Notes under the pieces: generated by a model
The model's input: the letters and a program-made list of their open reading frames with translations, nothing else
Databases searched by the model: none
What the model was told of the DNA's origin: nothing
Made by a program: the position numbers and the translations under genes
Assembly: GCA_031271665.1 (NCBI GenBank)
Contig: JAISVI010000007.1
Location: 1-45,513 of the forward strand
DNA from: Oscillospiraceae bacterium
GTDB lineage: Bacteria; Bacillota; Clostridia; Oscillospirales; UBA929
Direction: 5' to 3'
DNA: 45,513 nt
Shown here: positions 116 through 18,895 of the stretch, in pieces
Position numbering within the stretch: position 1 is the stretch's first letter
How the letters are laid out: the number at the start of each line of letters is the position of its first letter

Positions 116-943
116 TTGAAGATTTTCGACGCGCACTGTGACACGCTTTCCGCCGGATTTGACCTTGGGCGCGGCGCGGGGCAGTTTGACACACAGCGCG
201 CAATAGCGCGCGGCGGCGGGGTTCAGGTAATGGCCGCCTTCGGCGCGGATCAGGAGGGGCAGCTTAGGCGGCTTTCCGGGTACGTCACGGACTGCCGCGA
301 GGCGCTTGAGCGCGGCGCGCTTGCGCTTATCCCGGCGCTGGAGGGCGGCGACGCCGTGACCTCGCTTGAAGACGCAGAAAGGCTTATCGGCTTGGGCGTG
401 CGCTTTTTCGGACTTACTTGGAATAATGACAACGCGCTTGGCGGCGGGTGCTTGGGGTCAAGCGGACTTACCGCGCTTGGCCGCGGAGTTACAGAGCTTT
501 GCGAAAACCGGGGCGTAACCGTAGATTTGGCGCACGCGTCGAAGCAGACGTTTTGGGACGTGCTGAACCGCGCAAAGCGCCCCCCCGCCGTCACCCACGC
601 CTGTGCCGAGACCCTCAGGGCGCATATGCGCAATCTGGACGACAGCCAGCTTCGCGCGTTGGGCGAGCGGGGCGGAGTAGTCGGAATCACCTTTTACGTT
701 CCGTTCCTGACGGATACGCCGTCGCTTGCGTTCGACGCGCTTATCGCGCATTTCCGGCACGCCGTAAGCATCGCCGGGGAAGACGCCGTTGGCATAGGCT
801 CGGACTTCGACGGCTGTGACGCGCTTCCGCCGGGGCTTGAGGACACATCGCGCCTGCCCGCGCTTATCGAAAGACTGCCGTTTCCCGGACGGATAAAGGA
901 CAAAATCGCGTACGGCAATTTCCGGCGGCTGATTACGGAATAA
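116..943 (+). CDS. membrane (renal-type) dipeptidase, peptidase M19 family
   Basis: 275-aa ORF with a TTG start. It has N-terminal FDAHCDT plus VDLAH and GSDFDG motifs typical of M19 dipeptidases. Its 3' end overlaps the convergent ATPase gene by 11 nt. Confidence 0.85.
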   Translation: MKIFDAHCDTLSAGFDLGRGAGQFDTQRAIARGGGVQVMAAFGADQEGQLRRLSGYVTDCREALERGALALIPALEGGDAVTSLEDAERLIGLGVRFFGLTWNNDNALGGGCLGSSGLTALGRGVTELCENRGVTVDLAHASKQTFWDVLNRAKRPPAVTHACAETLRAHMRNLDDSQLRALGERGGVVGITFYVPFLTDTPSLAFDALIAHFRHAVSIAGEDAVGIGSDFDGCDALPPGLEDTSRLPALIERLPFPGRIKDKIAYGNFRRLITE

Positions 944-2882
944 GCTGTTCTCCCCACTCGCCAAGCTCCCTTGCGGTAAGAACCTTGTCAAGTTTCGCGT
1001 ACTCCATGCCGACCGCCCGCAAAATTTCTCCCATGCCGATAACGCCGGATCGGGCGGCGGCGATATACGCGGCGGTCAGAACGGTATTGCGTATGGCCGA
1101 GCCGCTTAATTCAAAGGTTTCGGCCAGAAACCGCGCGTCTATGCCGCCGTCAAGCGGCGCGCGGGAGTTTTCCATAAAACTTTTCCAAAGAAGAACGCGG
1201 GTCTCCGCGTCCGGCGCGGGGAACTCCACCCGAAGGTGAATGCGCCGCAGGAACGCGGGGTCCAGGTTGGAGGTAAGGTTTGTCGCGAGCAGCGCCACGC
1301 CGTCGAAACTTTCAAAACGCTGTAAAAGAAACGCCGTTTGCATGTTGGCGTATTTGTCGTGGCTGTCCCGCTGTTCGCCGCGCTTGCCGAACAGCGCGTC
1401 CGCCTCGTCAAAAAACAGCACGCCCGCGCTTTTGGCCGCCTCGGTGAACACGGATTCCAGGTTCTTTTCCGTTTCTCCGATATATTTGCTTACAAGCATG
1501 GCCAGATTAACCGTATACATCTCCATTCCAAGCTCCCGCGCGAGGATTTGCGCGGCCATGGTCTTGCCCGTGCCGGGCGGGCCGGAGAAAAGCGCGCGGA
1601 CGCCGCTTGTGCCGCAGGCGCGCCGGTCAAGCCCCCACGCGCCGCGCACGGTCTCGCCGTACAGTACGCGGTCGCGTATGTGAAAAAGCAGCTCTTTCTG
1701 CTCTTTGGGCAGTATAAGGTCGTCCCAAACATACTCCGAACGCGCCCTCTGCGCGAGCTTGTCCATACCGTGCGTAAGCCGCCCCTTACAGGCGGTGTGC
1801 AGACAGACGGCTGTCACCGCCGCGCCGCCCGCGCGTACGGCGGACTCTCTCGCTTCACGGCAGGCGTCAAGGATTTGCCCGGTCGTGAAGCGATAGCGCG
1901 CGGACATCACGCGCAAATCCTCCGCGTCCGCCTCCGGCATACATGTCCCCCAAATCGCAAGCCGCTGTTCAAAGCCAAGAACTGGCGTTTTAAGTGGGAT
2001 CACCGAGTATCCCTCCGCCGCCGGAAGGCTGGCCTCTTCCCCGCAGGCAAGGAACACGTTCGCCGGGCGCAGCGCGCGCAAAAGCGCTTCCAAAGGTTTC
2101 TCATAATCCCCAACATAGAGGAACGCGCCCGTAAGGGTAAGGAACGCCGCCAGATCGGCCATTGCCTCCGGCTTGCCGAACGCTTCGCCCGGTTCAAGGC
2201 GCGCGCAGATTCCGCCGTGCTCTTGTAAAAAGCGCGTTACCCAAAACTTGCGCCCGGAGCCCTTCGCGCCGCAAAGGCAGAAGACGTTGCCGGACGGCCT
2301 TACGGAAAGCTGCGCCGCGATAAGCCTTGGAATATCGCTGTTTACAAGCGTGGGATAGAGTGGGGCGTCCGGCGTCAGAACCGCGCAGTGTTCCGGGGGC
2401 GCCGCCAAGCCAAGCAGAAAGTCAAAAACGACCGGGCGAAGGCGCAGCGGCGCGCCGCCGCCCGTGTCAGTGAAAAGCAGTCCCGCGGCGCGCTTTTGAC
2501 TTCGCCAAAGGGCGTATAACGAGGAAGCTTCTTCCCGCGAGGCGGAGAAAACCCTTAGCGCAAGGTCAAGCGTAAGCCCCCCGAACGAATCCAGCACGGC
2601 GCGGTATGCCGGAAAAAGCTGCGCGGCAAGCGCAAGCTTTACCGTAAAGAAGCAAAACGGGTCAAGGCGCAGGATTTCCCGCACATCGCGCAGCGAGCCG
2701 CCGGCTTCCTCAAGCGAGGAAACTTCGTCCGCGTACGCCTGCCAAGCCTTTGCGCTGTCCGGCGGGTTTGCTATTTCAAGAAACTCCGCCGCGCGCGCGC
2801 CGCCCCCGCCCTCAAGCGCGAAGGCGTACAGCGGCCATCTAAGCGGCGACAGTTGGGTTGTCAGATACTCGGCCTGCGTCAT
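933..2882 (-). CDS. CIS AAA+ ATPase (Afp15/Pvc15-like)
   Basis: 649 aa. A C-terminal AAA module carries Walker A GPPGTGKT and Walker B VLFFDEADALF, preceded by KYIGETEKNLE. It follows a long non-ATPase N-terminal region. This is the last gene of the CIS operon. Confidence 0.9.
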   Translation of the reverse strand: MTQAEYLTTQLSPLRWPLYAFALEGGGGARAAEFLEIANPPDSAKAWQAYADEVSSLEEAGGSLRDVREILRLDPFCFFTVKLALAAQLFPAYRAVLDSFGGLTLDLALRVFSASREEASSLYALWRSQKRAAGLLFTDTGGGAPLRLRPVVFDFLLGLAAPPEHCAVLTPDAPLYPTLVNSDIPRLIAAQLSVRPSGNVFCLCGAKGSGRKFWVTRFLQEHGGICARLEPGEAFGKPEAMADLAAFLTLTGAFLYVGDYEKPLEALLRALRPANVFLACGEEASLPAAEGYSVIPLKTPVLGFEQRLAIWGTCMPEADAEDLRVMSARYRFTTGQILDACREARESAVRAGGAAVTAVCLHTACKGRLTHGMDKLAQRARSEYVWDDLILPKEQKELLFHIRDRVLYGETVRGAWGLDRRACGTSGVRALFSGPPGTGKTMAAQILARELGMEMYTVNLAMLVSKYIGETEKNLESVFTEAAKSAGVLFFDEADALFGKRGEQRDSHDKYANMQTAFLLQRFESFDGVALLATNLTSNLDPAFLRRIHLRVEFPAPDAETRVLLWKSFMENSRAPLDGGIDARFLAETFELSGSAIRNTVLTAAYIAAARSGVIGMGEILRAVGMEYAKLDKVLTARELGEWGEQLIP

Positions 2883-2893
2883 ATGCGCGCCCC

Positions 2894-5590
2894 CTATACT
2901 GTAAAAAGCGTCTCCGGCGGGGTGTCGGTATTTTGCCGCGCGTGGCTTTGTTTAAGGTATTCCCGGGAAGACGGGTCGTCTTGACCTTTTTTAAGAATCT
3001 CCAGAAACGCGCGCCGCGCCCTTGTATAGTCCGCGCTGTAATAACAGTCAACCCCCTGCCGGAACATATCCAAGGACGCGTCCTTTTTTTGTATCTGCGC
3101 GGCTGTGTCGCCGTCATAGAAATCGTACAGATTTCGCGTTTCGCCGCCGTCACCGATTATGCCAAGTCTGCGAAAGCGGTAGACATTGGCGTTTTCCATC
3201 GCGTCAAACGCGCCCTGCTCGACCATAAGGCGGCATCCGTAGCGCAGTCCGACCGGGCGTATTTCGTCCGCCTTGTGGGAAAAGCGCGAAAACAGCGTCA
3301 TGTTAAGCCGCCCGCCGTCCCCGGCAACCCCCAGAAATGAATCCGCGTAGGCAAGAAGGATACTGCACTCGATTTCCCCGTACGGCGTCCCCGCCGCCTC
3401 TTCGTTAAGGCGGTTTACCGCCGCGAGCATTGAAAGTGCCGCGTCCGCCGCCTTGCTTGGCGCGCAGTCCAAAAGCGCGCGCAGTTCGCGGCTGTTGAAG
3501 CGCTCGGCAACGCCGCCGAATTTTGCGAGCGCCGGAAGTATCCGCGCGTAAAAGCGGTTAAGCGCGACCAGGTGGTCTTCGTGCGTGTCAAAGCTTTCCG
3601 TCATAAGCAAAAGAAACATGGCTCTTGTCTGAATACAGTCCGCGGCGCGCACGTCCCGGATTGACGCTTTGTCCAAAACGGACAGCATTTCGCGCGGAAC
3701 AAATCGGCTGTAGGCGTCGCTTACCGAGCGTATCTCGACAATCGCGTTTTCCACAGAGGCGGCCATGCTGTTGAACGCGCTTGCGATCTCGCCCGTTTCG
3801 TCCAGATTGCGCACGTTCACCCGCGCGCCGTAATCGCCGTCCGCCACGGCAACGGCCCCGCGCCGCAGTCTGCCAAGCGCCCGCATCGTCACGGCGAGGA
3901 CGGCGGCAAGCGCGGCGATAAGCGCCGAAAGCACATAAAGGCAAAGGCGCGTCATCTGGCTTACGACGCTTTCGATGTCCGCGGCCATATCCCATTCCGG
4001 GGTGCTTACCTCTAAAAGCCCGACAAGTGTCTCCCCGTCCAAAACCGGGTACATAAGGGACAGCCACGCCCCCTCGTCGGCGCGGTCATACTGGCGCATA
4101 AAGACGGGCACCGTGCGCTTTTCCAGTAAATAATCCCGTTCCTCGCCCTGCGCAAGCGTGCCGTGGTAGTCCATATCCAGATTGACTATCGAATTGTCGC
4201 ATACCGCCACATAAACGCGTTTCCCTTCCACGCGGTAAAGCCAGTAGTTCATATAAATCGTTGTGACCTGCTCGCCCTGGCTGCCATGTCCCGACGCGTC
4301 GTAGACAGTGCGCTGGTGAAGACCCGACCACCCCCGAAGCTGATTGCGAAGGGAAAGAAAGTACTCGCTTGAGAACGGCTCGTCCCAGTTTATCCGCGCG
4401 AAGCGGGCCGCGTTGATGCCGGAAACCTTCTCCCGCGAGTCGGACAGTATCGCCGCGCGCGCGCTTTCGTACATAAGCGCGCGTATGCGCCCCGCCGATA
4501 CCGCGATAATAACGGCGGTGCCGACGGCGAAAACAGGGACGACGGCAAGCGCAAGCTTCAAAACAAGACTGACCCGGCGGCGTTTGTAAATATGGCGCGC
4601 GGCGCACAGTATAATGACGGCGGCCGCCGCTTCAAGCGCCGCCGGAACAAGCGTCTTTCCCGTCAGCAGAAAGCGCGGCGGTACGCGGACTTCGGGGAAG
4701 TCGCGCGTCTCCCCCGAAACGGATACCCTATAGCCCCCGTCCTTTTTAAGCGCGACCCATGTGTCTTCGCTAAGGGCGTTTACGCGGTAAATGTCGCGTA
4801 TGCCTTCCCGCACGGCTTCAAAGGAATCCGCCCCGGGCGCAAGCTTCAGCAAGGCATCCCCGTTCTCGCTGTCCGCGGCGAACAGGTAAAGCGCGCCGCC
4901 CGCCGTGGAAAGCTGCACGGCGGACATGCTCCCCGGCAGGTAAATATCTTCCCATTCCGCTCCCCGCAAGCGGTATACGCGGGAATCCGGCGACACCGCG
5001 TAAAGCGTTCCGCCGTCGGCCACCGCAAACCATGTAAGCGCGAACGGCAGCGGCGCGGTATCCCAAAGGCGCGTCTCGCCACTTTGTATATCAACGCGGT
5101 AAACGGTTAAAGCGCCGCCTGTTTCCGCGTAGAAAAGCCCGCCTTGGGAAATCCCCCCGGCGATTTCAAGCAAGCCGCCCCGCATTTCGCAAAGTGTGCG
5201 CGTATGCCCGGTGCGCATGTCGCATACGGCGATAAAGCTGTTTTGCGTCTGGGGCGAAGCATAGGGAAGCTCGTTTATACTCAGATAGACAAGTTCGTCC
5301 TCTTCGGCAAGAATATGCACCGTCCGGCGGGTCTTTCCGTCCGCTCCGTTTTTGGAAAAGCCGACAGCCCGCATAAGAGCGCCCTCCGGGGAGATTTCCC
5401 TAAGCGTAAGCGTATCCCCCCGCGCGTCATGGATGTCGCAGACTGTCCCCCGCGCCGTTATCATGCGCTCGGCCGAGCCGCTTACGCCGCGCAGTTCCAG
5501 ACCGCGAAGCCATACGTTAATCGCGGTGATTGCCGCCGTGACAATAAGTAAAAGCGCGATAAACGCGGGCGTGAACATCTTGCCTTTCAT
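2894..5590 (-). CDS. polytopic membrane receptor: two extracytoplasmic domains, HAMP, degenerate class III cyclase-homology domain, TPR-like tail
   Basis: 898 aa with four hydrophobic TM segments. A HAMP-like segment (DETGEIASAFNSMAASV) is followed by FVPREMLSVLDKASIRDV, the usual entry into cyclase-homology domains. The positions expected to hold the metal-binding Asp residues read LLLMTESFDT and FNSRELRALL. Gaps to the neighbouring core genes are 6 and 11 nt. Confidence 0.8.
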   Translation of the reverse strand: MKGKMFTPAFIALLLIVTAAITAINVWLRGLELRGVSGSAERMITARGTVCDIHDARGDTLTLREISPEGALMRAVGFSKNGADGKTRRTVHILAEEDELVYLSINELPYASPQTQNSFIAVCDMRTGHTRTLCEMRGGLLEIAGGISQGGLFYAETGGALTVYRVDIQSGETRLWDTAPLPFALTWFAVADGGTLYAVSPDSRVYRLRGAEWEDIYLPGSMSAVQLSTAGGALYLFAADSENGDALLKLAPGADSFEAVREGIRDIYRVNALSEDTWVALKKDGGYRVSVSGETRDFPEVRVPPRFLLTGKTLVPAALEAAAAVIILCAARHIYKRRRVSLVLKLALAVVPVFAVGTAVIIAVSAGRIRALMYESARAAILSDSREKVSGINAARFARINWDEPFSSEYFLSLRNQLRGWSGLHQRTVYDASGHGSQGEQVTTIYMNYWLYRVEGKRVYVAVCDNSIVNLDMDYHGTLAQGEERDYLLEKRTVPVFMRQYDRADEGAWLSLMYPVLDGETLVGLLEVSTPEWDMAADIESVVSQMTRLCLYVLSALIAALAAVLAVTMRALGRLRRGAVAVADGDYGARVNVRNLDETGEIASAFNSMAASVENAIVEIRSVSDAYSRFVPREMLSVLDKASIRDVRAADCIQTRAMFLLLMTESFDTHEDHLVALNRFYARILPALAKFGGVAERFNSRELRALLDCAPSKAADAALSMLAAVNRLNEEAAGTPYGEIECSILLAYADSFLGVAGDGGRLNMTLFSRFSHKADEIRPVGLRYGCRLMVEQGAFDAMENANVYRFRRLGIIGDGGETRNLYDFYDGDTAAQIQKKDASLDMFRQGVDCYYSADYTRARRAFLEILKKGQDDPSSREYLKQSHARQNTDTPPETLFTV

Positions 5591-5596: not shown

Positions 5597-5983
5597 CTAT
5601 CCCACCATGATTGTGGCCTGCCCGGCAAAGCTTACGGTAATCGCGCCGCCCCACATGCACCGGCACTGCGAAGAGTCCGTAAGCGCGGGCTGCCCGCCTA
5701 TCGTTACCGTGGAAGAGCCGGGCGACCAGGGCGCGGCGACGCTTGGCACACAGGGCATCGGCGTAAGCGCGCCCATCGCCGCGGCGGTTGCCGCCGCCAC
5801 CGTGGGATTGCTTATGGAATTGCACATAGCAAACGGCATGATATTCACAAGCGGCTTATTATCCATTATGTTCGCCATCGGCATCATATTAACCACCTTG
5901 TTCTGCGGCAATACGTTAAGGACCGAGGGCGCGGCGCCGAACGGGCATTTCGTCACCGCCCCGCCGCAAACGCCAAACCCCAT
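5597..5983 (-). CDS. DUF4280 (PAAR-like) spike-tip protein
   Basis: 128 aa. GAVTKCPFGAAPSVLNV...NIMPFAMCNSISNPTVAAATAAAMGALTPMPCVP...PWSPGSSTVTIGGQPAL...CRCMWGGAITV matches the DUF4280 pattern almost position for position. Confidence 0.9.
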   Translation of the reverse strand: MGFGVCGGAVTKCPFGAAPSVLNVLPQNKVVNMMPMANIMDNKPLVNIMPFAMCNSISNPTVAAATAAAMGALTPMPCVPSVAAPWSPGSSTVTIGGQPALTDSSQCRCMWGGAITVSFAGQATIMVG

Positions 5984-5998: not shown

Positions 5999-6643
5999 TC
6001 ATAATTCAATTTTCTCTGTCATACCGCCGCGCAGGATATACAAAAGCCGCGCGTTTTCCGGTATCGGCACTCGCGCCGCGCCTTCCCCTATACGGAAAAG
6101 CGGCGTCACGCGGGAACGCGCGGGGAAATCGCGTACCGCCGGCTCCGAAAGGACATACTTTCCCCGTCCGCCTCCGGCGTTTAAGAAAACCGGGGTCTCC
6201 GTCCCGTCCGGGGCAGAGAGTATGTGCATAAGCCCCGACAAATCGGCGTAATCCTCTTTGCGCAGACTTATATCGCGCCCGCCCGCCCGCGTTTCGGCGC
6301 ACAGGGCATAGCCGCCGCGCTCACCGCGAAAGCCGATGTGCGCGCCGCCGTCAAGTTCGTAAACGCGCCCCCTCGCAACATGACGCGCAAGCAGCGCGGC
6401 GCGCAGAAAACCCTCGCCCTCCGAAACGCGCAGGGTAATCCCCGCGTAAAACTCCGACGCGACGGCCACAAGCGCCGGACGCGTTCCCGTGAAGACAAAG
6501 TGTCCGTCTTCCTTGGCCGCCGGGACGCAAAACCCGTCCGCGCCGCGTACGCGCAGCGAACGGTCGCCGGGCCAAACCGGCCTTCCCGTGGCAAAGTCGT
6601 CAAGGCGCACCACAAGCGAAGCCTTTACAAATCGAGCCGTCAT
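5999..6643 (-). CDS. hypothetical CIS-associated protein (N-terminal beta-sandwich, carboxypeptidase-regulatory-like pattern)
   Basis: 214 aa. Its start overlaps the stop of the DUF4255 gene by 4 nt, suggesting translational coupling. The N-terminus (LVVRLDDFATGRPVWPGDRSLRVRG..EDGHFVF) resembles prealbumin-like beta-sandwich domains. No other motif was recognised. Confidence 0.6.
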   Translation of the reverse strand: MTARFVKASLVVRLDDFATGRPVWPGDRSLRVRGADGFCVPAAKEDGHFVFTGTRPALVAVASEFYAGITLRVSEGEGFLRAALLARHVARGRVYELDGGAHIGFRGERGGYALCAETRAGGRDISLRKEDYADLSGLMHILSAPDGTETPVFLNAGGGRGKYVLSEPAVRDFPARSRVTPLFRIGEGAARVPIPENARLLYILRGGMTEKIEL

Positions 6644-7179
6644 ATATCCCGCGTTTCAAGCCCCGCCGCCCCGACGCGGGCGACGGGCGTAAACCTTTGC
6701 GACGCGACCGCGATTGGCGCGCATCGGTAAAACAGGGAAAGGCGGTACGCCGTGCCGGAAAACTGCCATATCTTGCTTACCCTGTCCTCGTCCGGCGAAA
6801 GCAGTTCTATCCGGGGCGCGGGTATGACGGCGGGCTGTACCGCGCCGGAGAAGGGCAGCACGTAAATGTCGGTCCAAAGCCGCATTACCCGTTCCAGAAC
6901 CTTATAGTCGTCCGCCAGACCGGATTTCTTCCCGGCATAGGATGTGACCATAAAGCGCATTTCGGCGCACAGGGGCGGTGCCTCTTTGCCCCCGTCCACG
7001 CGCAGGGCGTCCGTAAGCTGATAGCGCGCGTCCTTTACAAGGCTGTACGGGAACACCCCAAGCAGACATGTCTCGTCCATGTCCGCAGGCGAGCGAAGGC
7101 CGATCTGTCCGGGCTGAAGCAGCGGCGGAAGCCCGGCTCTAAGCGCGGACAGGATTGCCTGTGTAATATCCGAAAGCAT
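6640..7179 (-). CDS. DUF4255 tail terminator/cap protein (Afp16/Pvc16-like)
   Basis: 179 aa. The N-terminus (MLSDITQAILSALRAGLPP...IGLRSPADMD...LGVFPYSL) and the later MRFMVTSYA segment are typical of the DUF4255/Pvc16_N family. Confidence 0.85.
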   Translation of the reverse strand: MLSDITQAILSALRAGLPPLLQPGQIGLRSPADMDETCLLGVFPYSLVKDARYQLTDALRVDGGKEAPPLCAEMRFMVTSYAGKKSGLADDYKVLERVMRLWTDIYVLPFSGAVQPAVIPAPRIELLSPDEDRVSKIWQFSGTAYRLSLFYRCAPIAVASQRFTPVARVGAAGLETRDI

Positions 7180-7221: not shown

Positions 7222-7389
7222 CTAAGAGCCTGTTTACTATCTGTTCGCGGATGGGCTTTTGAGTTAAATTCGATGTGCCGCAAGGAAAAAGCGGAGTGAA
7301 TGCTTTGTGCATTCACGAGCATTTTGACGCGGCGGAACGCGAATTCAGCCAAAAGACCGCCGCACAACAGATAGTAAACAGGCTCTAAG
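7222..7389. mobile_element. 158-bp palindromic (MITE/ERIC-like) element with 19-bp terminal inverted repeats and a 5-bp CTAAG direct duplication
   Basis: The inverted repeat AGCCTGTTTACTATCTGTT (7227-7245) pairs with AACAGATAGTAAACAGGCT (7366-7384). CTAAG occurs at 7222-7226 and 7385-7389. The interior is a long imperfect hairpin with a central GTGAATGC/GCATTCAC stem. Removing the element plus one CTAAG copy restores an 11-nt intergenic gap. Confidence 0.7.
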
Positions 7390-8130
7390 GAATATAACGC
7401 CGCCATCCTCCGACGGGACGGGGTCTTCCGGGGGCGGGGACGTGGATTCCGGCGTGGGTTCGGGCGTCGGTTCCGGCGTGGGCGTGGGCGTTGGCGTGGG
7501 TTCGGGGGACGGCGTTGGGGAAACGGCCGGCTTTCCGTCCGGGCCGTATTCAACCCCGGCCTGCATCCGCGCGCCCTTCAGGTATTTGCCGGAAAAGACG
7601 GGATGCCCGGTTTCGGGGTTATACTCCGTCCCCTCGCCGTCAAAAAGCCCCGCTGAAAATTCGCCCTTATAGCAAACGCTGCCGCCTTCGTAAAGCGTAC
7701 CCTGCCCATGAAACAAATTGGCCTTAAACCCGCCGCTGTATCTGACGAGGCCGTCCGCGCCGTAAAGCGTCCCCGCCCCGTCATACCGGTTTTCCTGAAA
7801 GCCGCCCTCGTACAAAAGCTTTCCGTCTTCGTAAAGCCGCCCCTGTCCGGCGACGACGCCTTTGTCAATCTCGCCTTCGTATACAAGCGTTCCGTCCGGC
7901 GCAAGAAGCCTTGCCCGCCCGGTATACTCCGCAAGATAGGGCGAGTGCACCGAAAACTCCGGCACGGCTTTTTGGGAAATAATAAAGCGTATGACCGCCG
8001 GGTGTATTAAAAGCGCGTACGTGACTGCGGCGGCAAGCAGGGCGCAGGCAAGCCGCCACAGAAAGGCAAGGCTTGCAAAGCGCCGCCCCAGACGGACATA
8101 ACCCTTGATTTTACGGTGTGACGCTTTCAT
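7345..8130 (-). CDS. N-terminally TM-anchored MORN-repeat protein with a Pro/Thr-rich tail
   Basis: 261 aa. A TM segment (LAFLWRLACALLAAAVTYALLI) is followed by about six YEGxFxxxxxxGxGxL MORN-type repeats and then PTPSPEPTPTPTPTPEPTPEPTPE. The last 14 codons lie inside the palindromic element. The start overlaps the upstream gene by 20 nt. Confidence 0.85.
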   Translation of the reverse strand: MKASHRKIKGYVRLGRRFASLAFLWRLACALLAAAVTYALLIHPAVIRFIISQKAVPEFSVHSPYLAEYTGRARLLAPDGTLVYEGEIDKGVVAGQGRLYEDGKLLYEGGFQENRYDGAGTLYGADGLVRYSGGFKANLFHGQGTLYEGGSVCYKGEFSAGLFDGEGTEYNPETGHPVFSGKYLKGARMQAGVEYGPDGKPAVSPTPSPEPTPTPTPTPEPTPEPTPESTSPPPEDPVPSEDGGVIFLRACLLSVVRRSFG

Positions 8131-8962
8131 CTTCCAAAATCACCGTTCCGATTGACTTTATCGCGTTTTCCGGCGGGGGAGGGGCGAATACCGCGCGGCA
8201 GAACATCACCGCCGCAAGCGCAAAGCCCGCGAGAAGCGCCGCGGCCGCGAGAACAGGCGCGGCGCGGGCTTTAAGCGCTTCCGTAAAAGCCTCCGCGCGG
8301 GCGCGAAGCCCCGGCTTTTCCCGTTCCGGCTTTGGCGTAAGCGCCTCAATTTCCCGCGCGTCCCGCAGCGCGGCGGCGTACAGTTCGTCCCAACCGTGTG
8401 CCCTAAGGTCGGTAAGAAGACCGTAAAGCGCGCCCGTGTACGCGTCCGGGTAAATGCTTCTCACGGTTTCGGACAGATACAGCATGGTTTTTATACTGTC
8501 GTGCCGTATGTACTGCGAAGTCAGATAAAGGTCGTAGATAAAGCTTACTTCCCCGGATTCCGAACAGACAAGATTCTCCGGGCGCAGCAGGTCGCGCAGT
8601 ATGGGAAACGGCGTGTTCTGCGTAAGAAGGGCTGCCAGCAGCGACGTAAGCGCGCGGGTGCGCAGGCGCGGCGGCGCTTTGCTTATAACCGCGCAAAGCG
8701 CCCGCGTTTCCGGCGGCGCGCGGTGGCGGAACACGGCGCAAGACCCGCCGTCATACGGAAAAAACTCGACAAAGTCGGTAAACGCCGCGTTTTCAAGGAA
8801 TCCCATAAAGACCGGCGTAAGCTTGCGCGCAAGCGGCGGGTAGTCGGCAATGACAAGCAGGAAAAGCCCCTCTTCGCCGCGCGCTCGCGCGATAAGACGG
8901 CGCTTGTTGCCGCAAAGCCGCGCGAGTACCGTGTATCTGCGCGTCGGCGATTCCACGGTCAT
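8111..8962 (-). CDS. hypothetical membrane protein; possible degenerate protein-kinase-like (pseudokinase) domain plus C-terminal TM
   Basis: 283 aa. LRDLLRPENLVCSESGEVSFIYDL resembles a kinase catalytic loop (HRDLKPEN...DFG) in which the His and the DFG Asp are lost. A C-terminal TM segment (PVLAAAALLAGFALAAVMF) is present. The start overlaps the fibre gene stop by 4 nt. The fold assignment is tentative. Confidence 0.6.
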   Translation of the reverse strand: MTVESPTRRYTVLARLCGNKRRLIARARGEEGLFLLVIADYPPLARKLTPVFMGFLENAAFTDFVEFFPYDGGSCAVFRHRAPPETRALCAVISKAPPRLRTRALTSLLAALLTQNTPFPILRDLLRPENLVCSESGEVSFIYDLYLTSQYIRHDSIKTMLYLSETVRSIYPDAYTGALYGLLTDLRAHGWDELYAAALRDAREIEALTPKPEREKPGLRARAEAFTEALKARAAPVLAAAALLAGFALAAVMFCRAVFAPPPPENAIKSIGTVILEDESVTP

Positions 8963-10242
8963 GGCGGCGGAATTACGACGACAAAGGCGGTTCCCGTCAC
9001 GTCCGGCAGGGACGCGCTCGCGGCGCGCACGGTGTACACGCCCTGCCTGTCGGGCGCGACATAGAAGCCCTCTTTAGTAATGCCGCCGCTGTCCTGATCC
9101 TCGGCATACCAGACTATATCCTGCTTTGACATGCCCCTTGCCTCGGCGGTGAACTGAACGCTTTGCCGGAACGTAAGCCTTACGGAACCGGGCGTTATCA
9201 AAATCTGCGGCGCGGGCGTCGCCGCGCCCGCCCAGGCCGGGTCTGTTTCCGCCGCCCATATAAAGCGCACAACCTCTCCCTCGCTTTCGGTTTTAAGCCG
9301 TACGCCGATTTTGAACGTGCCGCTTTCCTCGTCCGTCTTTGCCGCCCACTCGTATTCGCGCGGGCAGAAGATTGACGGGTTTCCGAAAACCGCGCCCCCG
9401 CCGGTTTGCAGCCCAAGCGTCACGCATACGCCCGTCATGCCAAGCCCGTGTACGATATCGCCCGAGTAGTGCAAAGAACCGTACCGCGAACCCCCGGGGA
9501 TGTCCACCGCCGCCGTGCCGAAGGCGCGGGCGGGCGCGGGCGGCGAGGCAAGCCCATCCCTTGGCGGAGGGGGAAGCGGGCGCTCCGGCGCGGCGGGGGG
9601 CGGCGGCACATGCTCCGGCGCGGAGGGTACGGCGGCTTTCTGACCGAACGGAAGGACATCTATGCCTTCAATCTCAAAGGCGTCCTCCCACCGCGAAAGG
9701 CGGATGCGCGCCAGATAAAGCCGCGTAAGCAAACCGCGTTCCAGCTTGTTTTCAAGGGATTCGCTTCGCGGGTCTTCGGGCGGGGCGCTTATTTCGCGCG
9801 CGTCCGGCTCGCCGTAACGAAGGTAAAGTCTTGCCCTCTCCTCGGCGCGCCCGTACTTCTCTTCGTCAAGGGGCGCGTCGGTAAGCGCGCGCACGGGTTC
9901 GGAAGGCGTTTCGCGGTATTCGGCGCACAGATAGACGTGCTTTTCCGTCCCGTAGTCGTCCCCGAATCCCGCAAGCTCGGAAAGCCGGGCCACAACGGGC
10001 TTGTCAAGCGCCACCTCGCGCCCAAGACCGTCAAACGCAAGCCCCGACTCAACGGCCACCATTATATCGTTAAGCTTCATAACGCCCAATCCGCACACCA
10101 CCCCCGGGCCGTACAGAAGGGCGTTCAGAAGCCGCCGCTTGTTGTTCATATAGGTTTGTTCCGCTTCCATGTCGCGCCCAGTCAGAAGCTTGCCGAAGAA
10201 ATACTTATTGCGCGAAAGCGGGAAAAGTTCCGTGTTCTCCAT
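8959..10242 (-). CDS. CIS fibre-like / distal baseplate protein with Pro-rich linker and C-terminal Ig-like domain
   Basis: 427 aa. The N-terminal RNKYFFGKLLTGRDMEAEQTY motif is one I recall from proteins that follow baseplate genes in CIS loci. A PPPPAAPERPLPPPP linker is followed by a C-terminal Big_2-like segment (ITPGSVRLTFRQSVQFTAEA...GVYTVRAAS). Confidence 0.75.
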   Translation of the reverse strand: MENTELFPLSRNKYFFGKLLTGRDMEAEQTYMNNKRRLLNALLYGPGVVCGLGVMKLNDIMVAVESGLAFDGLGREVALDKPVVARLSELAGFGDDYGTEKHVYLCAEYRETPSEPVRALTDAPLDEEKYGRAEERARLYLRYGEPDAREISAPPEDPRSESLENKLERGLLTRLYLARIRLSRWEDAFEIEGIDVLPFGQKAAVPSAPEHVPPPPAAPERPLPPPPRDGLASPPAPARAFGTAAVDIPGGSRYGSLHYSGDIVHGLGMTGVCVTLGLQTGGGAVFGNPSIFCPREYEWAAKTDEESGTFKIGVRLKTESEGEVVRFIWAAETDPAWAGAATPAPQILITPGSVRLTFRQSVQFTAEARGMSKQDIVWYAEDQDSGGITKEGFYVAPDRQGVYTVRAASASLPDVTGTAFVVVIPPP

Positions 10243-11314
10243 TGTGATTTAAGTCCCCCAACGACGCAAAGTTAAGTCTGCTGCTTATGCCAAGGCACGC
10301 GGCGGGGCAGTCGCTTAAACGCGTATTTATCCCAAGGTACAAACAGTCGGAAAGGCCGGGGCTTTGGTCAAGAATCCTTGCTTTGTATGTAACCCCGCAC
10401 GGAAGAAAGCTTTGCGTCACGCGGTCAAAGCTCTCCGGCTCGGGCGGCGAACGGGCGGCTTGGGGCGGCAGGAAAAGGGTGATTTCACCGCCCGTGTAGT
10501 GCCTGTCGTTTTCCGCGTCCCCGTTCAGCATACGGAAGTTTTCGCATACAAAGGGGCGCAGTCCGGTATACTGCCGCACAAATTCCGCCAGTGCCGAAAT
10601 GCGGCCTTTTCTGCGGTACAGGCCGGAAACAAGCAGTTCGCGAAGGTTTTCCGGTTTCCACAACTCGGCGTGGGGGATACCCATCGCCCCGGCAAGCCAA
10701 TAAAGCATGTCCGGCGGCGCGGCGCGCGGGTCAAAGGTTTCGTAAAGCGCGTCAATCTTTCGTTCAAGTTCCAGATACGGCACGGAAAACAGACGCAGGA
10801 AGCGGTCAAGGAAGCCGTTTTTGTCCGCATATATCTCCGGCAGATACTTTAGAAACGACTCCAGCGCGCAGTACACCTGAATTGAATGTATTACAATGGG
10901 CGGCGTCCCTTCCGGGCGGTAAAGCTCGGCGGACACAACGCAGTAACGCCCGCGCACGGCGTCAAGCAGAAAATCCATTGTGCCGCTTTGCCGAAACACC
11001 TGAAAGGGGGCAAGCGCCTTCATAACGCTTAAAGCGTCTTCGCCTTCCGGAAGGGCGCTTATCTCCCGCGCCTTATCCTCGCGGTCTGCCGCGTAAAACC
11101 GCCAGACAATTTCCGCGCCTTCGGGCAGTTCCGCCTGCGCGCAGAACCGCTGCCATACATTGCCGCTTTCAAGGCTGTCCATAACGGGCGTAATCAAAAC
11201 GCCCGTCTCGGAAGCGTCCATAACGGCGCGGTCATCCCTTGCCTCTATGCCGGACATGCGGCATCCCCGGAACGCCGCCTTATGGTTCAGAATAAAATAG
11301 CGCGTTTCCGTCAA
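10205..11314 (-). CDS. phage tail protein I-like baseplate protein (P2 gpI / Afp12-type domain)
   Basis: 369 aa. LKYLPEIYADKNGFLDRFLRLFS...LDALYETFDPRAAPPDMLYWLAGAMGI...LRELLVSGLYRRKGR is the signature of the gpI-like phage tail protein domain. Confidence 0.85.
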   Translation of the reverse strand: MTETRYFILNHKAAFRGCRMSGIEARDDRAVMDASETGVLITPVMDSLESGNVWQRFCAQAELPEGAEIVWRFYAADREDKAREISALPEGEDALSVMKALAPFQVFRQSGTMDFLLDAVRGRYCVVSAELYRPEGTPPIVIHSIQVYCALESFLKYLPEIYADKNGFLDRFLRLFSVPYLELERKIDALYETFDPRAAPPDMLYWLAGAMGIPHAELWKPENLRELLVSGLYRRKGRISALAEFVRQYTGLRPFVCENFRMLNGDAENDRHYTGGEITLFLPPQAARSPPEPESFDRVTQSFLPCGVTYKARILDQSPGLSDCLYLGINTRLSDCPAACLGISSRLNFASLGDLNHNGEHGTFPAFAQ

Positions 11315-11326
11315 GCCGCTTCCCCC

Positions 11327-12421
11327 TTATACCCTAAGCGCGCGGATTGCGAAATCAAACCCCGCGAGGCGGTACGGCTCTAAATGAAGGCGTATCGCGC
11401 GCTTATGCTCTTCGGCAAGCGCCGCGCCGCGCACTTTCGCGGCGATGACTATAATGCGCGGTCTTCCGCCGCCGGGACGGTTTTCCGGCGCGAATACGCG
11501 CGCGTCCTCTACGCGGGTTCCCGGCGTTTCAAGCACAAGAAGGCGGATATCCTCCGCCGTGACGGCTTGGCGTCTTTCTTCCTCCATGCGCGTAAGCGTC
11601 TCTCCGGGGCTTTCGCGCCGCGCGCCGCCCTGGGCGGGTTTTTCCTGAACAAGCGTAAGAAGGCGTTCCCCCACGCGCATTTCCGTAAGCTGGCCGGAGG
11701 TGATATTGCCACCCTCCCCCCGCGTAAGAGCCATCGAAACGATGCGCACCTCACCCTTGGGCGCAAGCCCCCGGATACCGTCGCCGAAGGAGACAACCCC
11801 GCTTTCGTCGTCAAGCGTAAAATGGGTATCGGCGGAGCCGGAAAGGCGGAAGTCGTCAACCGCCGTCCACGTTTGCGCCCCCGAAAGGCCGCCACTGCCG
11901 GACACGGCGAGCGAAAAGCTTTCATGCAGTACGCTCTGGGCGCGCGTGTCAACGGTAAATGACAGTCCCGGAAAGCCGTCCGCGACCCCCAAAACAGGGC
12001 GTTCCGGCGAGTCAAACAGCCCGCCGAAAACGGTGTGCTTCTGTATCACACGGAAAGAAAGCGCTTTCCCCGGACAGGCGGGGATGTCCGCCGCCGTTTC
12101 AAAGCGTATGTCCTCGGCCATGACCGGTGTGCCGGACGGTATGCGCACCGGAGTTCCGTGGGGAAGCGTGACCTCCGCCACAGCGGGGCGCGCCCTGCGG
12201 GGCGTTATGCCAAGCAGCGGGAAGAACGCGTCCGCGCGCTCGCTTGCGGACATGTGAAAGCGCTGTGCCTCGGTAAGCCACGCCATAAGGTCGATAAGCG
12301 TAACGCCGGGGTCGTGGGTGTTGAAATCGCTCCATTCGGGAAGCAGGTTCGCCGCGTCCAACCGGGCTTGCGACACAATCTCGGGGAAGCGCTCGTCGTC
12401 CGGATTATTCTGTCTAAGCAT
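11327..12421 (-). CDS. baseplate J-like protein (short paralogue)
   Basis: 364 aa. The N-terminus (NTHDPGVTLIDLMAWLTEAQRF) and the C-terminal segment (RQAVTAEDIRLLVLETPGTRVEDARV) are typical of the baseplate J/gp47 family. Confidence 0.75.
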   Translation of the reverse strand: MLRQNNPDDERFPEIVSQARLDAANLLPEWSDFNTHDPGVTLIDLMAWLTEAQRFHMSASERADAFFPLLGITPRRARPAVAEVTLPHGTPVRIPSGTPVMAEDIRFETAADIPACPGKALSFRVIQKHTVFGGLFDSPERPVLGVADGFPGLSFTVDTRAQSVLHESFSLAVSGSGGLSGAQTWTAVDDFRLSGSADTHFTLDDESGVVSFGDGIRGLAPKGEVRIVSMALTRGEGGNITSGQLTEMRVGERLLTLVQEKPAQGGARRESPGETLTRMEEERRQAVTAEDIRLLVLETPGTRVEDARVFAPENRPGGGRPRIIVIAAKVRGAALAEEHKRAIRLHLEPYRLAGFDFAIRALRV

Positions 12422-12423
12422 GA

Positions 12424-14856
12424 CTAGGCCACCCGGAAGGCAATCTCGTGCGTCCCGTCCGCAGGAAGGGCAAAGGGTTCTCTGACGGCGCGCGCGTAAT
12501 CCGCGTAGGCGTGGTTTATCTTATAGACGGCCTTCACGCCGTAAAGCGAAGCAATACCGGGAACGGTACGCAAAACGGCGGCAATGTCCTCCGGGGACGG
12601 AAGAGTTCCGAGTTGCCAGCCGCCCTCCGGTCCGCCGCGCGCGGCGTCCAGATAAAGCGAAAGGGTTTCCAGTATCCGGCGCTTGACATTAAGGGCTTCC
12701 TCCGGCGCGGAAATTGCCGCGTGTACCGTAACATTTACGTCTACAAACCGTGCCGCCGCGACGCAAAGCCTTCCCGCGCCAAGCGGGCGGCGCGGCGCGA
12801 CGAAAGCAAGCGCGGCGCGCCCAATCGCGCCGAAATCCCCGCGTCCGCCGTGCGCGGACAAAAGCGCCAGACAGTCGCAGTCCGGGTTCTCCGCTCCGTC
12901 TTCGCCGGTACGGCAGTAAAGACGCGCCCGCAGGACAAGCGGCGAGGACTCAAGCGCCAGTTCCTCGCAGTCACGCGCGCTTACGGCGCGTCCGCCGTGG
13001 CAAAGCCCGGCGGTCAGACGCCGGATTACGCCTTGCTCGTCCTCCTCCGAGACTCCCCCGGCGCAAGCCGTGGGGTTAAACACGGCGGAAATCCCCGCCA
13101 CGGGCGCAAGCAGGGAACTGAACGCCCCGGAGGGCAGATTGGACGCAACCCCCGGCGTCCTTGCCGTCGCGGAGACGGCGTTTTCAAAAATCCCCAGAAG
13201 GCGCGGCCCGGACTGCGTGAAGCGCCCGAAAGTATTGTCCGCGTCGCATACGCGCATCCAATACCCCTCGCGCCCGAAAAGCCGGGTTTTCGCGCACGGC
13301 AAAGGCGCCTGATAGGTAAGGATGCCCGTTTGGGAAAGGTTTTTCGTGCCGTCATGTACGTCAAGCGCCGCCCACCCGCCCCCGACGGCATACTCCCAGC
13401 GCGCTTTGAACGCCTGTCCCGGCGTAAGATGAAATAGAATGCCGCCCTGTGAAAACGGCATGGCGAACGCGAAGTATACCGCCCCGGGGGTATCCAATGC
13501 CCCGCGTAAAGGCACGGGAGTCCCGTCCAAAGCGACCGCGCGGCTTTCCATATGCTCGTAAACCTCGGCTTCAGGCACGGGGAACTCCCCGGCGTACCTT
13601 ATCCGCAGACCGGATATCACCGGTGTGCGGTAATGCCCGCGCATACGGAAAAGGTTGTTTACGCCAAGTATGCGCGCCCGTATAAACGGCAGCTCATGCG
13701 CCCCCCAGACGGCGAAAGCCATATCCTCCGGGCATGTAAAGCTTACGGCGCGCCTTCTTGACGGGCCGCTTGAAAACATGCCCGGCTCTCCGGCGGGCAG
13801 GACGGCCCAGCCTGTCCCGTTGAAATACTCCCAGACAGTTTCGGAAATGTCAATCACATACTCGGCGGGCGGCGCAAGTTCCTCGGCCTTCATAAGCTTT
13901 TTCATGCGTATCTGCACGTCGGGGTATCCCTCTATCGGAAAATCCTCGAAGTCAAGGTGAAAAGAAACCTCTATACGCGCGCCCGGCTTGCCGAACGCGT
14001 CGGCGCAGGCGATATAAAAGCACAGCCCCGGTATAAAGCGCCTGTCAAACGGGTACACCCGGTCGCCGGACTGCTGGGTGTCCCCGGCGTAAACCGCGTC
14101 CGGGAACAGCGCGTTCTCGCTTGGCATCGCCGTAACGGCGCGAAGCGCGGCGCTTTCGCGCTGTCCGCCGGGAAGCGTTATGCGCAGCGCGCGTCCGCCC
14201 CGATTTTGCGCAAGCAGAATATCGCCGCCGTCCGGGCGCGCGTCAATTTGCGTCCACTCTTCCCCGTCCCCGGACTCCCAAAGTACGCCGCCCCCGCAAA
14301 GATCCGCAACGTCCGCGTTATCCAGTCTTATGTTAAGCCGCAGGGCGGCGTTCTGCGAAACGCAGAAGGCGTACGGGTGATAAAGCGTCCAGACATGGGG
14401 CGCGGGCTGTGCCAGACCGAACAGGGTGATGTTTTCCCGTCCGTTATAAAGCGTTAAAATATCACGCTGCGGAAACGCGCAATAGATTGCCCCGATAACG
14501 GCGGGGGACACAATAAGTTCCGCGTCCGTTTCCATAACGGCCTGCGGGTCTTCCGGACACGCCGCGCCCGTTCCGGCGGGGACGCAAATAATCCCGCCGT
14601 CCTCGGCCGCAGACTGAAACGCAAGGTATCCGCGCGCCGGAAGGGGCTTTCTCGGCACTGAACCGATAACGTCAAGCAGCGCGCGGCGGCAGTTGTCGGG
14701 CAGACGCCCGAAGCGTTCAAGCGTGCCGGAAAACATCCCGCACCAAACGGACGCAAGCACCGCCCCGGCGTCCGGCGAGGCGGGGTTAAAGCGCCATTCC
14801 GGGACATAATACGGCGCGCGTCCGGCAATCTCCTCAAGAAGCCTCTCTTTTTCCAT
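12424..14856 (-). CDS. large baseplate assembly protein (baseplate J/gp6-like, Afp11-type)
   Basis: 810 aa. It has the N-terminal PEWRFNPASPDAGAVL pattern and the C-terminal GGRAVSARDCEELALESSPLVLRARL baseplate-J motif. There is a 0-nt gap to the gp25-like gene. Confidence 0.85.
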   Translation of the reverse strand: MEKERLLEEIAGRAPYYVPEWRFNPASPDAGAVLASVWCGMFSGTLERFGRLPDNCRRALLDVIGSVPRKPLPARGYLAFQSAAEDGGIICVPAGTGAACPEDPQAVMETDAELIVSPAVIGAIYCAFPQRDILTLYNGRENITLFGLAQPAPHVWTLYHPYAFCVSQNAALRLNIRLDNADVADLCGGGVLWESGDGEEWTQIDARPDGGDILLAQNRGGRALRITLPGGQRESAALRAVTAMPSENALFPDAVYAGDTQQSGDRVYPFDRRFIPGLCFYIACADAFGKPGARIEVSFHLDFEDFPIEGYPDVQIRMKKLMKAEELAPPAEYVIDISETVWEYFNGTGWAVLPAGEPGMFSSGPSRRRAVSFTCPEDMAFAVWGAHELPFIRARILGVNNLFRMRGHYRTPVISGLRIRYAGEFPVPEAEVYEHMESRAVALDGTPVPLRGALDTPGAVYFAFAMPFSQGGILFHLTPGQAFKARWEYAVGGGWAALDVHDGTKNLSQTGILTYQAPLPCAKTRLFGREGYWMRVCDADNTFGRFTQSGPRLLGIFENAVSATARTPGVASNLPSGAFSSLLAPVAGISAVFNPTACAGGVSEEDEQGVIRRLTAGLCHGGRAVSARDCEELALESSPLVLRARLYCRTGEDGAENPDCDCLALLSAHGGRGDFGAIGRAALAFVAPRRPLGAGRLCVAAARFVDVNVTVHAAISAPEEALNVKRRILETLSLYLDAARGGPEGGWQLGTLPSPEDIAAVLRTVPGIASLYGVKAVYKINHAYADYARAVREPFALPADGTHEIAFRVA

Positions 14857-15261
14857 TTAGACTCCCTCCGTCAGAAAGAACGGGTATACCAAATTAAACG
14901 GGCTGTTTGTGCTGCGCACCGTGTACTTGATGTCCAGACGGAAACCGCCGCTTGAGCCTTGCGGGAAATCCGCCTCGGCCTCGATGTTTGTGATGCGCGG
15001 TTCCCACAGGCCAAGCGCCTCTTCCGCCGCCTCGCGTATCCTGGCGCGCGTGCCGTAACTGTCGGCGGCGAAGACATACTCGTGAAGCCTTGAGCCGAAT
15101 TCCGGGCGCATAAGCCGCTCGCCAAGCCGCGTGGACAGGATTATGTGTATGGCCTGCTTGATGTCCTGTTCGTAAAGCGCAAGCCTTACGCGTCCGCTTG
15201 CTTTGTCCGTTCCCACCGGGAAGGCAAGACCGCCGCCCAAAAAGTCCTTGGTGTAATCCAT
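14857..15261 (-). CDS. GPW/gp25-family baseplate wedge protein (Afp9-like)
   Basis: 134 aa. DIKQAIHIILSTRLGERLMRPEFGSRLHEYVF is the classic gp25 motif. Confidence 0.9.
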   Translation of the reverse strand: MDYTKDFLGGGLAFPVGTDKASGRVRLALYEQDIKQAIHIILSTRLGERLMRPEFGSRLHEYVFAADSYGTRARIREAAEEALGLWEPRITNIEAEADFPQGSSGGFRLDIKYTVRSTNSPFNLVYPFFLTEGV

Positions 15262-15269
15262 TGCCGCCC

Positions 15270-15448
15270 CCCCTTAGTTCAGAGCTTGCTGAATAAGCGC
15301 ACTGTTACGCTTCACAACTTTTTTCGACCGGCAAATTCGGAATTTTTCGCTTTGGTTTCTGCGAAACAAAGCTCCAAAATTCTGAATTTGACAACTCGCG
15401 CCTTCGGTGCTTCGGGTCGAAAAAAAGTTGTTCAGCAGCCCCTTAGTT
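15270..15448. mobile_element. about 159-bp palindromic (MITE/ERIC-like) element flanked by a direct repeat of up to 10 bp (CCCCTTAGTT)
   Basis: CCCCTTAGTT occurs at 15270-15279 and 15439-15448. The interior folds as a long imperfect hairpin: CACAACTTTTTTCGACC/GGTCGAAAAAAAGTTGT, AAATTCGGAATTTT/AAAATTCTGAATTT, and a central GCTTTGGTTTC/GAAACAAAGC stem. Removing it restores a 12-nt gap between the spike and gp25 genes. Confidence 0.65.
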
Positions 15449-16162: not shown

Positions 16163-16169
16163 CGCTTTT

Positions 16170-17836: not shown

Positions 17837-17839
17837 GCC

Positions 17840-18699: not shown

Positions 18700-18717
18700 G
18701 GCACACCTCGAACAGTT

Positions 18718-18745
18718 CCCTCTAAAACCACGGGTTTTTAGAGGG
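18718..18745 (-). promoter_or_regulatory. intra-operon RNA hairpin overlapping the stop of the small ORF
   Basis: CCCTCTAAAACC-ACG-GGTTTTTAGAGGG forms a 12-bp stem with one bulged T. It lies between the abundant sheath/tube genes and the baseplate genes. No U-tract follows it on the sense strand. Confidence 0.3.
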
Positions 18746-18884: not shown

Positions 18885-18895
18885 TTCCTCGTAAA

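Follow-up and report, generated by a model that had tools for sequence, protein, structure and literature searches.

Outside type VI secretion systems (T6SS), where and when an intracellularly assembled contractile injection system (CIS) fires is an open question. The stretch of 45,513 nucleotides from position 1 of contig JAISVI010000007.1 of an Oscillospiraceae bacterium (lineage UBA929, assembly GCA_031271665.1), hereafter the window, raises this question in a specific form: a gene for a transmembrane (TM) receptor lies in its CIS operon, between the genes for a PAAR-like spike-tip protein and for an ATPase. What could a signaling receptor do in such an operon? The encoded protein has four TM segments, two ectodomains, a HAMP segment, a cyclase-transducer element and a class III cyclase-homology domain (CHD); the catalytic set of the CHD has been lost, the transduction elements have been retained, and the linkage to CIS genes is conserved. 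We propose, with moderate confidence, that the receptor is a dimeric polytopic membrane protein and a dedicated accessory part of a clostridial CIS that acts as a contact-signaling adaptor, gating docking, assembly or firing. The family wires a full transduction chain, from ectodomain through HAMP and transducer element to what would be an output dimer, into a CIS operon, and thereby gives experimental handles on the question.

Position of the receptor gene in the operon

The receptor gene (positions 2894 to 5590; this and all further receptor coordinates are on the minus strand) starts with ATG and encodes 898 amino acids (aa), and full-length homologues at 25 to 60% identity exclude a chance origin of the open reading frame (ORF). 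Directly upstream lies the gene for the PAAR-like spike-tip protein of the DUF4280 family (5597 to 5983, minus strand; Pfam E 3.4e-33), whose stop codon is separated from the receptor ATG by 6 nt; directly downstream, 11 nt after the receptor stop codon, begins the gene for an Afp15-type AAA+ ATPase (933 to 2882, minus strand; Pfam AAA, E 1e-28). Both distances agree with the initial annotation, which had not stated the strand. The same annotation had placed the gene inside the operon, and the junctions bear this out: no terminator-like sites were found on the coding strand at either of them, the terminator count being equal to that in shuffled sequence, and the promoter-like matches near the receptor are limited to weak ones (9/12) within the DUF4280 gene, so that no independent promoter and terminator that would isolate the gene came to light. 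By Pfam and NCBIfam matches, the operon, which spans ~20 kb entirely on the minus strand, unites an Afp/PVC-like core set of sheath, tube, VgrG, gp25, Baseplate_J, Pvc16_N cap and AAA ATPase.

A class III cyclase-homology domain without its catalytic set

Directly after the fourth TM segment (TM4), residues 568 to 614 (3749 to 3889) form the HAMP segment that had been recognized by eye (PF00672, E 7.5e-9; its 36.2 bits clear the Pfam cut-off, which is 25); the region also matches the HAMP of HtrII among PDB sequences. It is followed by a cyclase-transducer element (residues 625 to 647, DAYSRFVPREMLSVLDKASIRDV; 3650 to 3718), in which F630, V631, P632 and L639 are at least 96% conserved among dead as well as live relatives. 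The motif, Y.RFVP.E....L, stands N-terminal of the CHD in dead and live sequences alike, and the FVPREML stretch, initially described as the usual lead-in to class III cyclase domains, indeed aligns to the transducer element of active relatives.

The domain behind this lead-in escapes standard annotation. PF00211 (Guanylate_cyc) gave no Pfam match, even at E<=10, to residues 615 to 898 or to the orthologous segment, and NCBIfam, up to the same E value, gave no cyclase match to the C-terminal 284 aa. Homology to cyclases emerged only with a two-sequence profile, built from residues 615 to 898 and an orthologue, which matches PF00211-carrying proteins with E 3.5e-19; an exhaustive HMMER profile search of 1.84 billion representatives then gave 5,005 matches at E<=1e-3, 2,826 of them at E<=1e-10. 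The AlphaFold2 (AF2) model of residues 615 to 898 is of moderate quality (pLDDT 64.5), and its top 50 Foldseek matches in the PDB, with TM-scores of 0.3 to 0.47, are all class III cyclases (probability 1.0), including Cya2, CyaC, bPAC, OaPAC, sAC and CyaB. The C-terminal domain (residues 651 to 825; 3116 to 3640) is therefore a class III CHD, as the initial annotation had it, by profile search and Foldseek even though Pfam misses it. Because PF00211 and NCBIfam overlook this pseudo-cyclase family, its public annotation is just "HAMP domain-containing protein," the sole source name given for any receptor homologue.

The alignments also settle the positions of the residues that had been reported missing. 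The stretch LLLMTESFDT aligns to ..FADIRxFT.., FNSRELRALL to ..YIGDxxMALF.. and FSRFSHKADE to ..GDxVNxAxRxE.. of the enzymes. The first metal-binding Asp is accordingly replaced by M663 (HMM alignment) or T664 (MAFFT alignment) and the second by R701, and the transition-state Asn and Arg by H772 and E776. At the latter two sites the family itself varies, with H, Y, N or S for the Asn and E, D, N, S, R, K or F for the Arg. The substrate Lys corresponds to R697, a position occupied by Arg in 52% of the family members with degenerate CHDs (the dead family, for short) versus Lys in 97% of live relatives. Thr765, at the substrate-specifying site, is retained in the receptor, where close relatives have I, L or M. 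With its catalytic set lost, the CHD is best read as unable to make a cyclic nucleotide. It might nonetheless handle nucleotides in another way: ATP, GTP or a cyclic nucleotide could bind to it and act allosterically, or non-canonical residues could carry out catalysis. In favor of this, 97% of the dead family retain the phosphate-binding Arg (R761), and an acidic residue (here D668) often follows the conserved Phe. However, both metal Asp, the DIR motif, the glycine of the IGD motif and the transition-state Asn and Arg are all gone, and no new catalytic set has been fixed, since the replacements differ between dead family members; we regard continued nucleotide handling as scarcely probable. 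The earlier reading of the protein as a sensor or scaffold rather than a producer of nucleotides remains the best one, the catalytic residues being absent, the CIS linkage conserved (see below) and the gene not isolated by signals of its own.

The helical C-terminal tail (residues 826 to 898; 2897 to 3115) is the best-predicted part of the C-terminal model (pLDDT 77 to 93). Of its initial description as TPR-like, the helical character stands, with four confident helices and a pattern, G846..Y850..A858..F862..P873, that by eye resembles one TPR motif; a TPR hidden Markov model (HMM) found no match in the tail.

Selection on the dead family

We scored the catalytic residues in the 150 best 50%-identity cluster representatives among the profile matches. 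The full D-D-N-R set is present in 96 of these, and both metal Asp are missing from 47. Every one of the 29 proteins of ~870 to 1070 aa with three to five predicted TM segments before the CHD lacks at least one metal Asp, and 27 lack both. Numbering 47 clusters or more at the 50% identity level, these proteins are a clear bacterial case of a CHD kept as a pseudoenzyme; our search for literature on bacterial pseudo-cyclases found nothing relevant.

A column-by-column comparison of 31 dead four-TM proteins with 99 live relatives separates what was given up from what was kept. Approximately 35 positions that are at least 80% conserved in the live proteins are variable in the dead ones, among them the DIR and IGD motifs, G743, G745, D769, R776, K782 and K815; this indicates that the whole active site was relaxed or abandoned, not re-specialized. 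Common to both groups are F630, V631, P632 and L639 of the transducer element, G693, G754, G757, R761 and R807 of the CHD, and K836, F843, Y850, A858, F862, D872 and Y878 of the tail, whereas D823, V847, R859, K867 and E877, mostly in the tail, are conserved in the dead group only. Judged by these columns, the dead family is still under selection in its fold, in its input helices and in its tail.

A second class of dead CHDs occurs in proteins of ~565 aa with two TM segments (P0028, P0033, P0098, P0105, P0115, P0119, P0121 and P0139), which score as high as many live cyclases. Four further proteins (P0011, P0018, P0021 and P0048) are soluble or polytopic proteins with two or three tandem cyclase domains; P0011, P0021 and P0048 carry at least one degenerate copy beside an intact one, and the N-terminal copy of P0018 differs at the transition-state Arg only.

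Topology and ectodomains

Four hydrophobic segments, including the TM2/TM3 hairpin that had been noted in the translation, span the N-terminal two-thirds of the receptor. TM1 (residues 6 to 28; 5507 to 5575) follows the basic N-terminus MKGK, with a hydropathy peak of 2.41 and a modeled helix at residues 8 to 34; the hairpin (residues 311 to 364; 4499 to 4660) consists of TM2 (311 to 331) and TM3 (340 to 364), with peaks of 2.10 and 2.68; and TM4 (residues 547 to 568; 3887 to 3952; peak 2.69) is followed by RALGRLRRG. The cytoplasmic loop between TM2 and TM3 contains KRRR and has a charge of +5. The K/R-rich stretches at the N-terminus, in this loop and after TM4 agree with an N-in arrangement, in which two domains of the protein are extracytoplasmic.

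An AF2 model of residues 1 to 570, built on 12 family sequences, has a pLDDT of 82 and a predicted TM-score (pTM) of 0.81. In it, ectodomain 1 (residues ~38 to 300; 4691 to 5479), whose repetitive beta-strand pattern had been apparent from the sequence, is a six-bladed beta-propeller of 24 strands; Foldseek matches it to Kelch-type propellers (E ~1e-7), and the family profile to PQQ-type and designed "Cake" propellers (E 5e-9). For ectodomain 2 (residues 366 to 545; 3956 to 4495), the modeled order of secondary-structure elements, a stalk helix and an alpha/beta domain, is consistent with a PAS/Cache-like sensor fold. Sequence matches to PAS_4 and dCache_3 are weak (E 0.04 to 0.13), and Foldseek gave no confirmation of the fold, propeller matches having filled its list.

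The two ectodomains differ in their history. Ectodomain 1 is the least conserved part of the receptor (24 to 49% identity), and in distant family members, which share only the stretch from TM3 onward with the window protein, it is replaced by unrelated sequence; ectodomain 2 belongs to the common core (query residues ~330 to 880). In close homologues, the cytoplasmic parts are 57 to 77% identical versus 35 to 58% for the ectodomains. A variable input is thus combined with a fixed output, the pattern usual for sensors. These observations bear on the possibility that the protein is a passive membrane anchor, which tethers the CIS or its spike and baseplate and retains its receptor-like parts as evolutionary relics without a role in signaling. 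The loss of catalysis does show that the ancestral function was abandoned, and other CISs use structural anchors, such as the baseplate extensions of thylakoid-anchored CISs (tCIS) and the membrane complex of the T6SS (PMC12237407). A pure anchor, however, would not need a HAMP segment and a transducer element as conserved as those of active cyclases, nor would it explain why two elaborate ectodomains are maintained and why the first is swapped between lineages; we consider a purely structural role unlikely.

Linkage of the receptor to CIS genes

A word-index search with the full receptor found one homologue, so that the exhaustive search was needed; a metagenome scan with a five-sequence alignment added one locus, and homologues of the baseplate protein were used to reach further loci. 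In total, 13 distinct receptor genes were recovered, that of the window included, with identities to the window protein from 60% down to ~25%. Redundancy was removed where L001 and L002 (an Oscillospiraceae metagenome-assembled genome) and L003 and L013 (Clostridiales UBA929) proved to be identical pairs and L004 and L005 to encode the same protein; the other receptor loci are L006 to L012, L016 and L017. All 13 genes lie in CIS operons, and tblastn with the full set of operon proteins recovered one and the same CIS gene order at each locus. The linkage that the initial annotation required thus holds in every related locus examined, in a sample that is small and entirely metagenomic; loci to which the receptor itself led give no measure of the number of operons in the lineage that are without it.

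DUF4280 lies immediately upstream of the receptor in all 12 loci with upstream sequence (DUF4280 identity 64 to 82%), and in 11 of these the two genes overlap by up to 4 nt or stand up to 34 nt apart. The ATPase gene is directly downstream in seven loci. In a sister lineage (L014 and L015; 28% identity in the baseplate protein), the cap gene is followed by a gene for a 259-aa protein and then directly by the ATPase gene (L014 19238 to 21219; L015 17014 to 18995). Both DUF4280 and the receptor are missing from this site, and the orf283-like and MORN-repeat proteins described below are retained. DUF4280 and the receptor are therefore present or absent together, as one module. Against this background, it is hardly credible that the receptor is an unrelated passenger gene that entered the operon by chance. 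HAMP proteins are not enriched in eCIS (extracellular CIS) operons overall, by the figures of Geller et al. (2021), which speaks for a passenger, but the same position is kept in 13 distinct loci down to 25% identity, across junctions that are tight or overlapping and devoid of terminators.

In T6SS loci, the gene after a PAAR gene is often one for an effector or an immunity protein. The placement of the receptor immediately downstream of a PAAR-like gene could thus be read as that of a protein that is not part of the machine, either a cargo or effector of the DUF4280 tip or a surface protein for immunity or self-recognition, and its fast-evolving ectodomains could be taken in the same sense. 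A ~900-aa four-TM HAMP protein with positive-inside loops nevertheless indicates insertion in the producer's own membrane. Pfam and NCBIfam scans found no toxin domain in the receptor, and its cytoplasmic half is the most conserved, which is the opposite of what polymorphic effectors display. A role as cargo or immunity protein is, in our judgment, decidedly improbable.

Divergence is uneven along the operon. Between the window and the UBA929 operon, the sheath and tube proteins are 90 to 94% identical and DUF4280 81%, compared with 56% for the receptor, 53% for orf214 and 56% for orf283; by this measure the receptor is among the most diverged components. Viral contigs were scanned once with DUF4280 and once with the C-terminal profile, and neither scan gave a match, which places these operons outside IMG/VR.

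The region downstream of the receptor takes other forms in three loci. In L010 (13092 to 15377), a gene for a 761-aa protein with SLH (cell-wall-binding) domains stands between the receptor and ATPase genes, and in L011 (13221 to 17397) the interval is occupied by two genes, whose products have 758 and 627 aa, the latter with a weak PI3_PI4_kinase match. In L016 (14933 to 17239), the receptor is shorter (768 aa), overlaps the DUF4280 stop codon by 4 nt and is the last gene of the operon, with no ATPase gene after it and a convergent Dus gene following.

A proposed mechanism for contact signaling

How might such a receptor act on a CIS? In the sequence of events that we favor, the fast-evolving ectodomains, the propeller and the PAS/Cache-like domain, would sense a cue that arises at the cell envelope or in the surroundings of the cell, and the signal would be relayed from TM4 through HAMP and the transducer element to a dimer of the CHD. 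HAMP and CHD modules are normally homodimeric, and the receptor probably is as well. As the CHD dimer cannot, on the best reading, make a cyclic nucleotide, the output would be a conformational change of the pseudo-cyclase dimer and its tail, read by direct protein contact. The likeliest partners would be the products of adjacent genes, DUF4280 first, then the ATPase or a baseplate protein, and through this contact the machine would become docked to the membrane and its assembly or firing gated. Among these roles, tethering, a gate on firing and a gate on assembly are each conceivable.

Several observations weigh against this proposal. Co-translation that is favored on some other ground could account for the placement next to DUF4280. 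The ATPase is not an obligatory neighbor, as shown by L016, which lacks it, and by the intervening genes of L010 and L011. Look-ups with the baseplate protein gave three loci with the receptor and one without, all of them metagenomic. The model of the C-terminal region, with its moderate pLDDT and low TM-scores, is not strong, and the regulator gene considered below is not conserved across loci. Finally, given the CIS13-like gene of the operon and the eCIS_core genes near related operons, a released extracellular CIS is possible, for which a membrane dock is not obviously needed; if particles are released, control of production or loading would fit better than docking.

That last option has a candidate target in the window. 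A gene for a MalT/LuxR-type STAND regulator (21595 to 24048, plus strand; GerE, TPR_MalT and AAA_22 matches), a candidate regulator of the operon, diverges from the sheath gene (19728 to 21443, minus strand), and the layout is the same in the UBA929 locus (L013 1136 to 3379). The pseudo-cyclase might then sequester or release this regulator, or the ATPase, and thereby control transcription, assembly or cargo loading. Mycobacterial proteins such as Rv0386 join a cyclase domain to a STAND-LuxR module, which speaks for such a pairing, as does the ATPase gene as the usual downstream neighbor of the receptor. On the other side, a small XRE-type helix-turn-helix (HTH) gene takes the place of the regulator in L017, the ATPase is not always adjacent, and the receptor gene lies inside the very operon that its product would control. 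We think a production regulator improbable. Signaling from the pseudo-cyclase to the MalT/LuxR regulator, considered as a specific route, is weakened by the presence of the regulator in only two of the three loci with a visible operon start.

The preferred contact-signaling reading gains a wider setting from the other membrane proteins of the operon, of which the receptor is not the only one. Orf283 (8111 to 8962, minus strand) consists of a ~235-aa cytoplasmic domain and a C-terminal TM anchor (hydropathy peak 2.51 at residue 237), followed on the outer side by a short conserved tail (..IGTV..). In the PDB, the profile of its family matches eukaryotic-type protein kinases (CDKL5, E 1e-4) across RDLLRPENL, which resembles HRDxKPENL; no obvious Gly-loop or VAIK lysine was seen in its sequence, and the domain is kinase-like and possibly a pseudokinase. 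The MORN-repeat protein (7345 to 8130, minus strand; Pfam MORN) has a basic N-terminus, an N-terminal TM segment (peak at residue 18) and, after it, the MORN repeats, together with a linker rich in Pro and Thr. At 261 aa, the copy in the window is without ~140 aa of a C-terminal domain that its relatives have; these measure 401 aa in L013 and up to 868 aa in L010. Both orf283 and the MORN protein are kept in all loci, those lacking the receptor included, which suggests an envelope-associated machine. We offer, as a tentative and rather doubtful extension, that in this clostridial CIS lineage the three signaling proteins of the operon form a dock in the envelope, comparable in a monoderm to the membrane complex of the T6SS. 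The pseudo-cyclase dimer would hold the DUF4280 tip and let the machine go, or fire it, only once the ectodomains sense a specific external cue; if so, the system would be a ligand-gated injection system.

Comparison with known systems

Membrane adaptors or sensors as accessory parts of CISs are known; what is new is one built from a pseudo-cyclase receptor. To our knowledge, CisA is the only accessory membrane factor so far shown to be required for CIS firing. This protein (SCO4242) of Streptomyces coelicolor is encoded in the CIS cluster and required for contraction; it is predicted to bind the baseplate protein Cis11, is not a stable part of purified particles, and was suggested by its authors to be a sensor or checkpoint (PMC12237407). 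The initial assertion that no CIS with an operon-internal membrane receptor had been described was thus too strong, and it stands in the narrower form that our literature search found no HAMP- or cyclase-type component or receptor in any CIS. Like the clostridial receptor, CisA is a membrane protein of a CIS cluster with an extracytoplasmic domain of ligand-binding type and a cytoplasmic part proposed to contact the machine. Compared by description, however, CisA is single-pass, its cytoplasmic N-terminus being mostly unstructured and its C-terminal domain solute-binding-like, lacks HAMP and a cyclase fold, and sits at the usual place of the tail-fiber gene (PMC12237407), whereas the clostridial receptor has four TM segments and a classical transducer module and is encoded between the spike-tip and ATPase genes. 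By analogy, the two may share a role, with unrelated architectures.

Sequence homology clearly links the receptor to HAMP-containing class III (IIIb-type) receptor adenylyl cyclases, a kind of enzyme that includes mycobacterial Rv3645/Rv1319c-type proteins. The active relatives P0034 to P0055 share the fold and the order TM-HAMP-transducer element-CHD-tail, and homology to live enzymes reaches E values down to 1e-30. The clostridial receptor differs from them in the absence of the catalytic set, in an extra TM1-propeller-TM2 module and in being fixed in a CIS operon.

The likeness to the T6SS membrane complex (TssJ/L/M), a membrane assembly that docks baseplate and spike before firing (PMC12237407), is conceptual. 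There is no homology, TssL, TssM and TssJ families not having been found by Pfam and NCBIfam among the operon proteins; the clostridial host is presumably monoderm, and docking of its CIS is a proposal. The Afp/PVC eCIS operons (Geller et al. 2021, PMC8213781), in turn, provide the counterparts of sheath, tubes, VgrG, gp25, baseplate J/I, Pvc16 cap and Afp15-type ATPase. In the clostridial operon, by contrast, the PAAR-like gene forms a pair with the receptor gene at the 3' end, genes for three membrane proteins are present, and the HAMP/cyclase component has no reported equivalent in Afp or PVC. Geller et al. (2021, PMC8213781) list 37 occurrences of HAMP in eCIS operons, with a ratio of 0.49, so that HAMP is not enriched; the authors do not take up the domain in their discussion. 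Ruminiclostridium cellulolyticum H10 was weighed as a cultured model and set aside: its eCIS has a different gene order, with afp15 and afp16 first, and none of its operon genes carries a HAMP annotation among the rows listed from the supplement table (PMC8213781).

Other genes of the operon and the window

The operon reads, from its 5' end, sheath, gp19-type tubes, tube-LysM, gpD-like, VgrG (15443 to 16162), gp25 (14857 to 15261), two Baseplate_J-like genes, P2_I-like, CIS13-like, orf283, the MORN protein, the Pvc16_N cap (6640 to 7179; Pfam E 5e-15), orf214 (5999 to 6643), DUF4280, the receptor and, as last gene, the ATPase, all on the minus strand. The CIS genes from the sheath to the one preceding orf283 occupy 8959 to 21443 and were assigned by Pfam and NCBIfam matches. 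Orf214 is conserved, and the order of orf214 and the cap gene is kept in all loci. The CIS13-like protein combines a conserved N-terminus with a variable C-terminus. The operon ends with the ATPase gene, since a convergent Peptidase_M19 (membrane dipeptidase) gene (116 to 943, plus strand) overlaps its 3' end by 11 nt.

Proteins with eCIS_core (PF13699/DUF4157), a marker of eCIS-associated toxins, were not detected among the scanned ORFs of the window and flank related operons in L004 (14036 to 15124), L013 (771 to 1133) and L017 (1013 to 1993). The other genes of the window, among them those for Lgt, formate-tetrahydrofolate ligase, NadA, MltG/YceG, AlaRS, ComEC and GlgB, are those of an ordinary chromosome, and the GC content is 59%.

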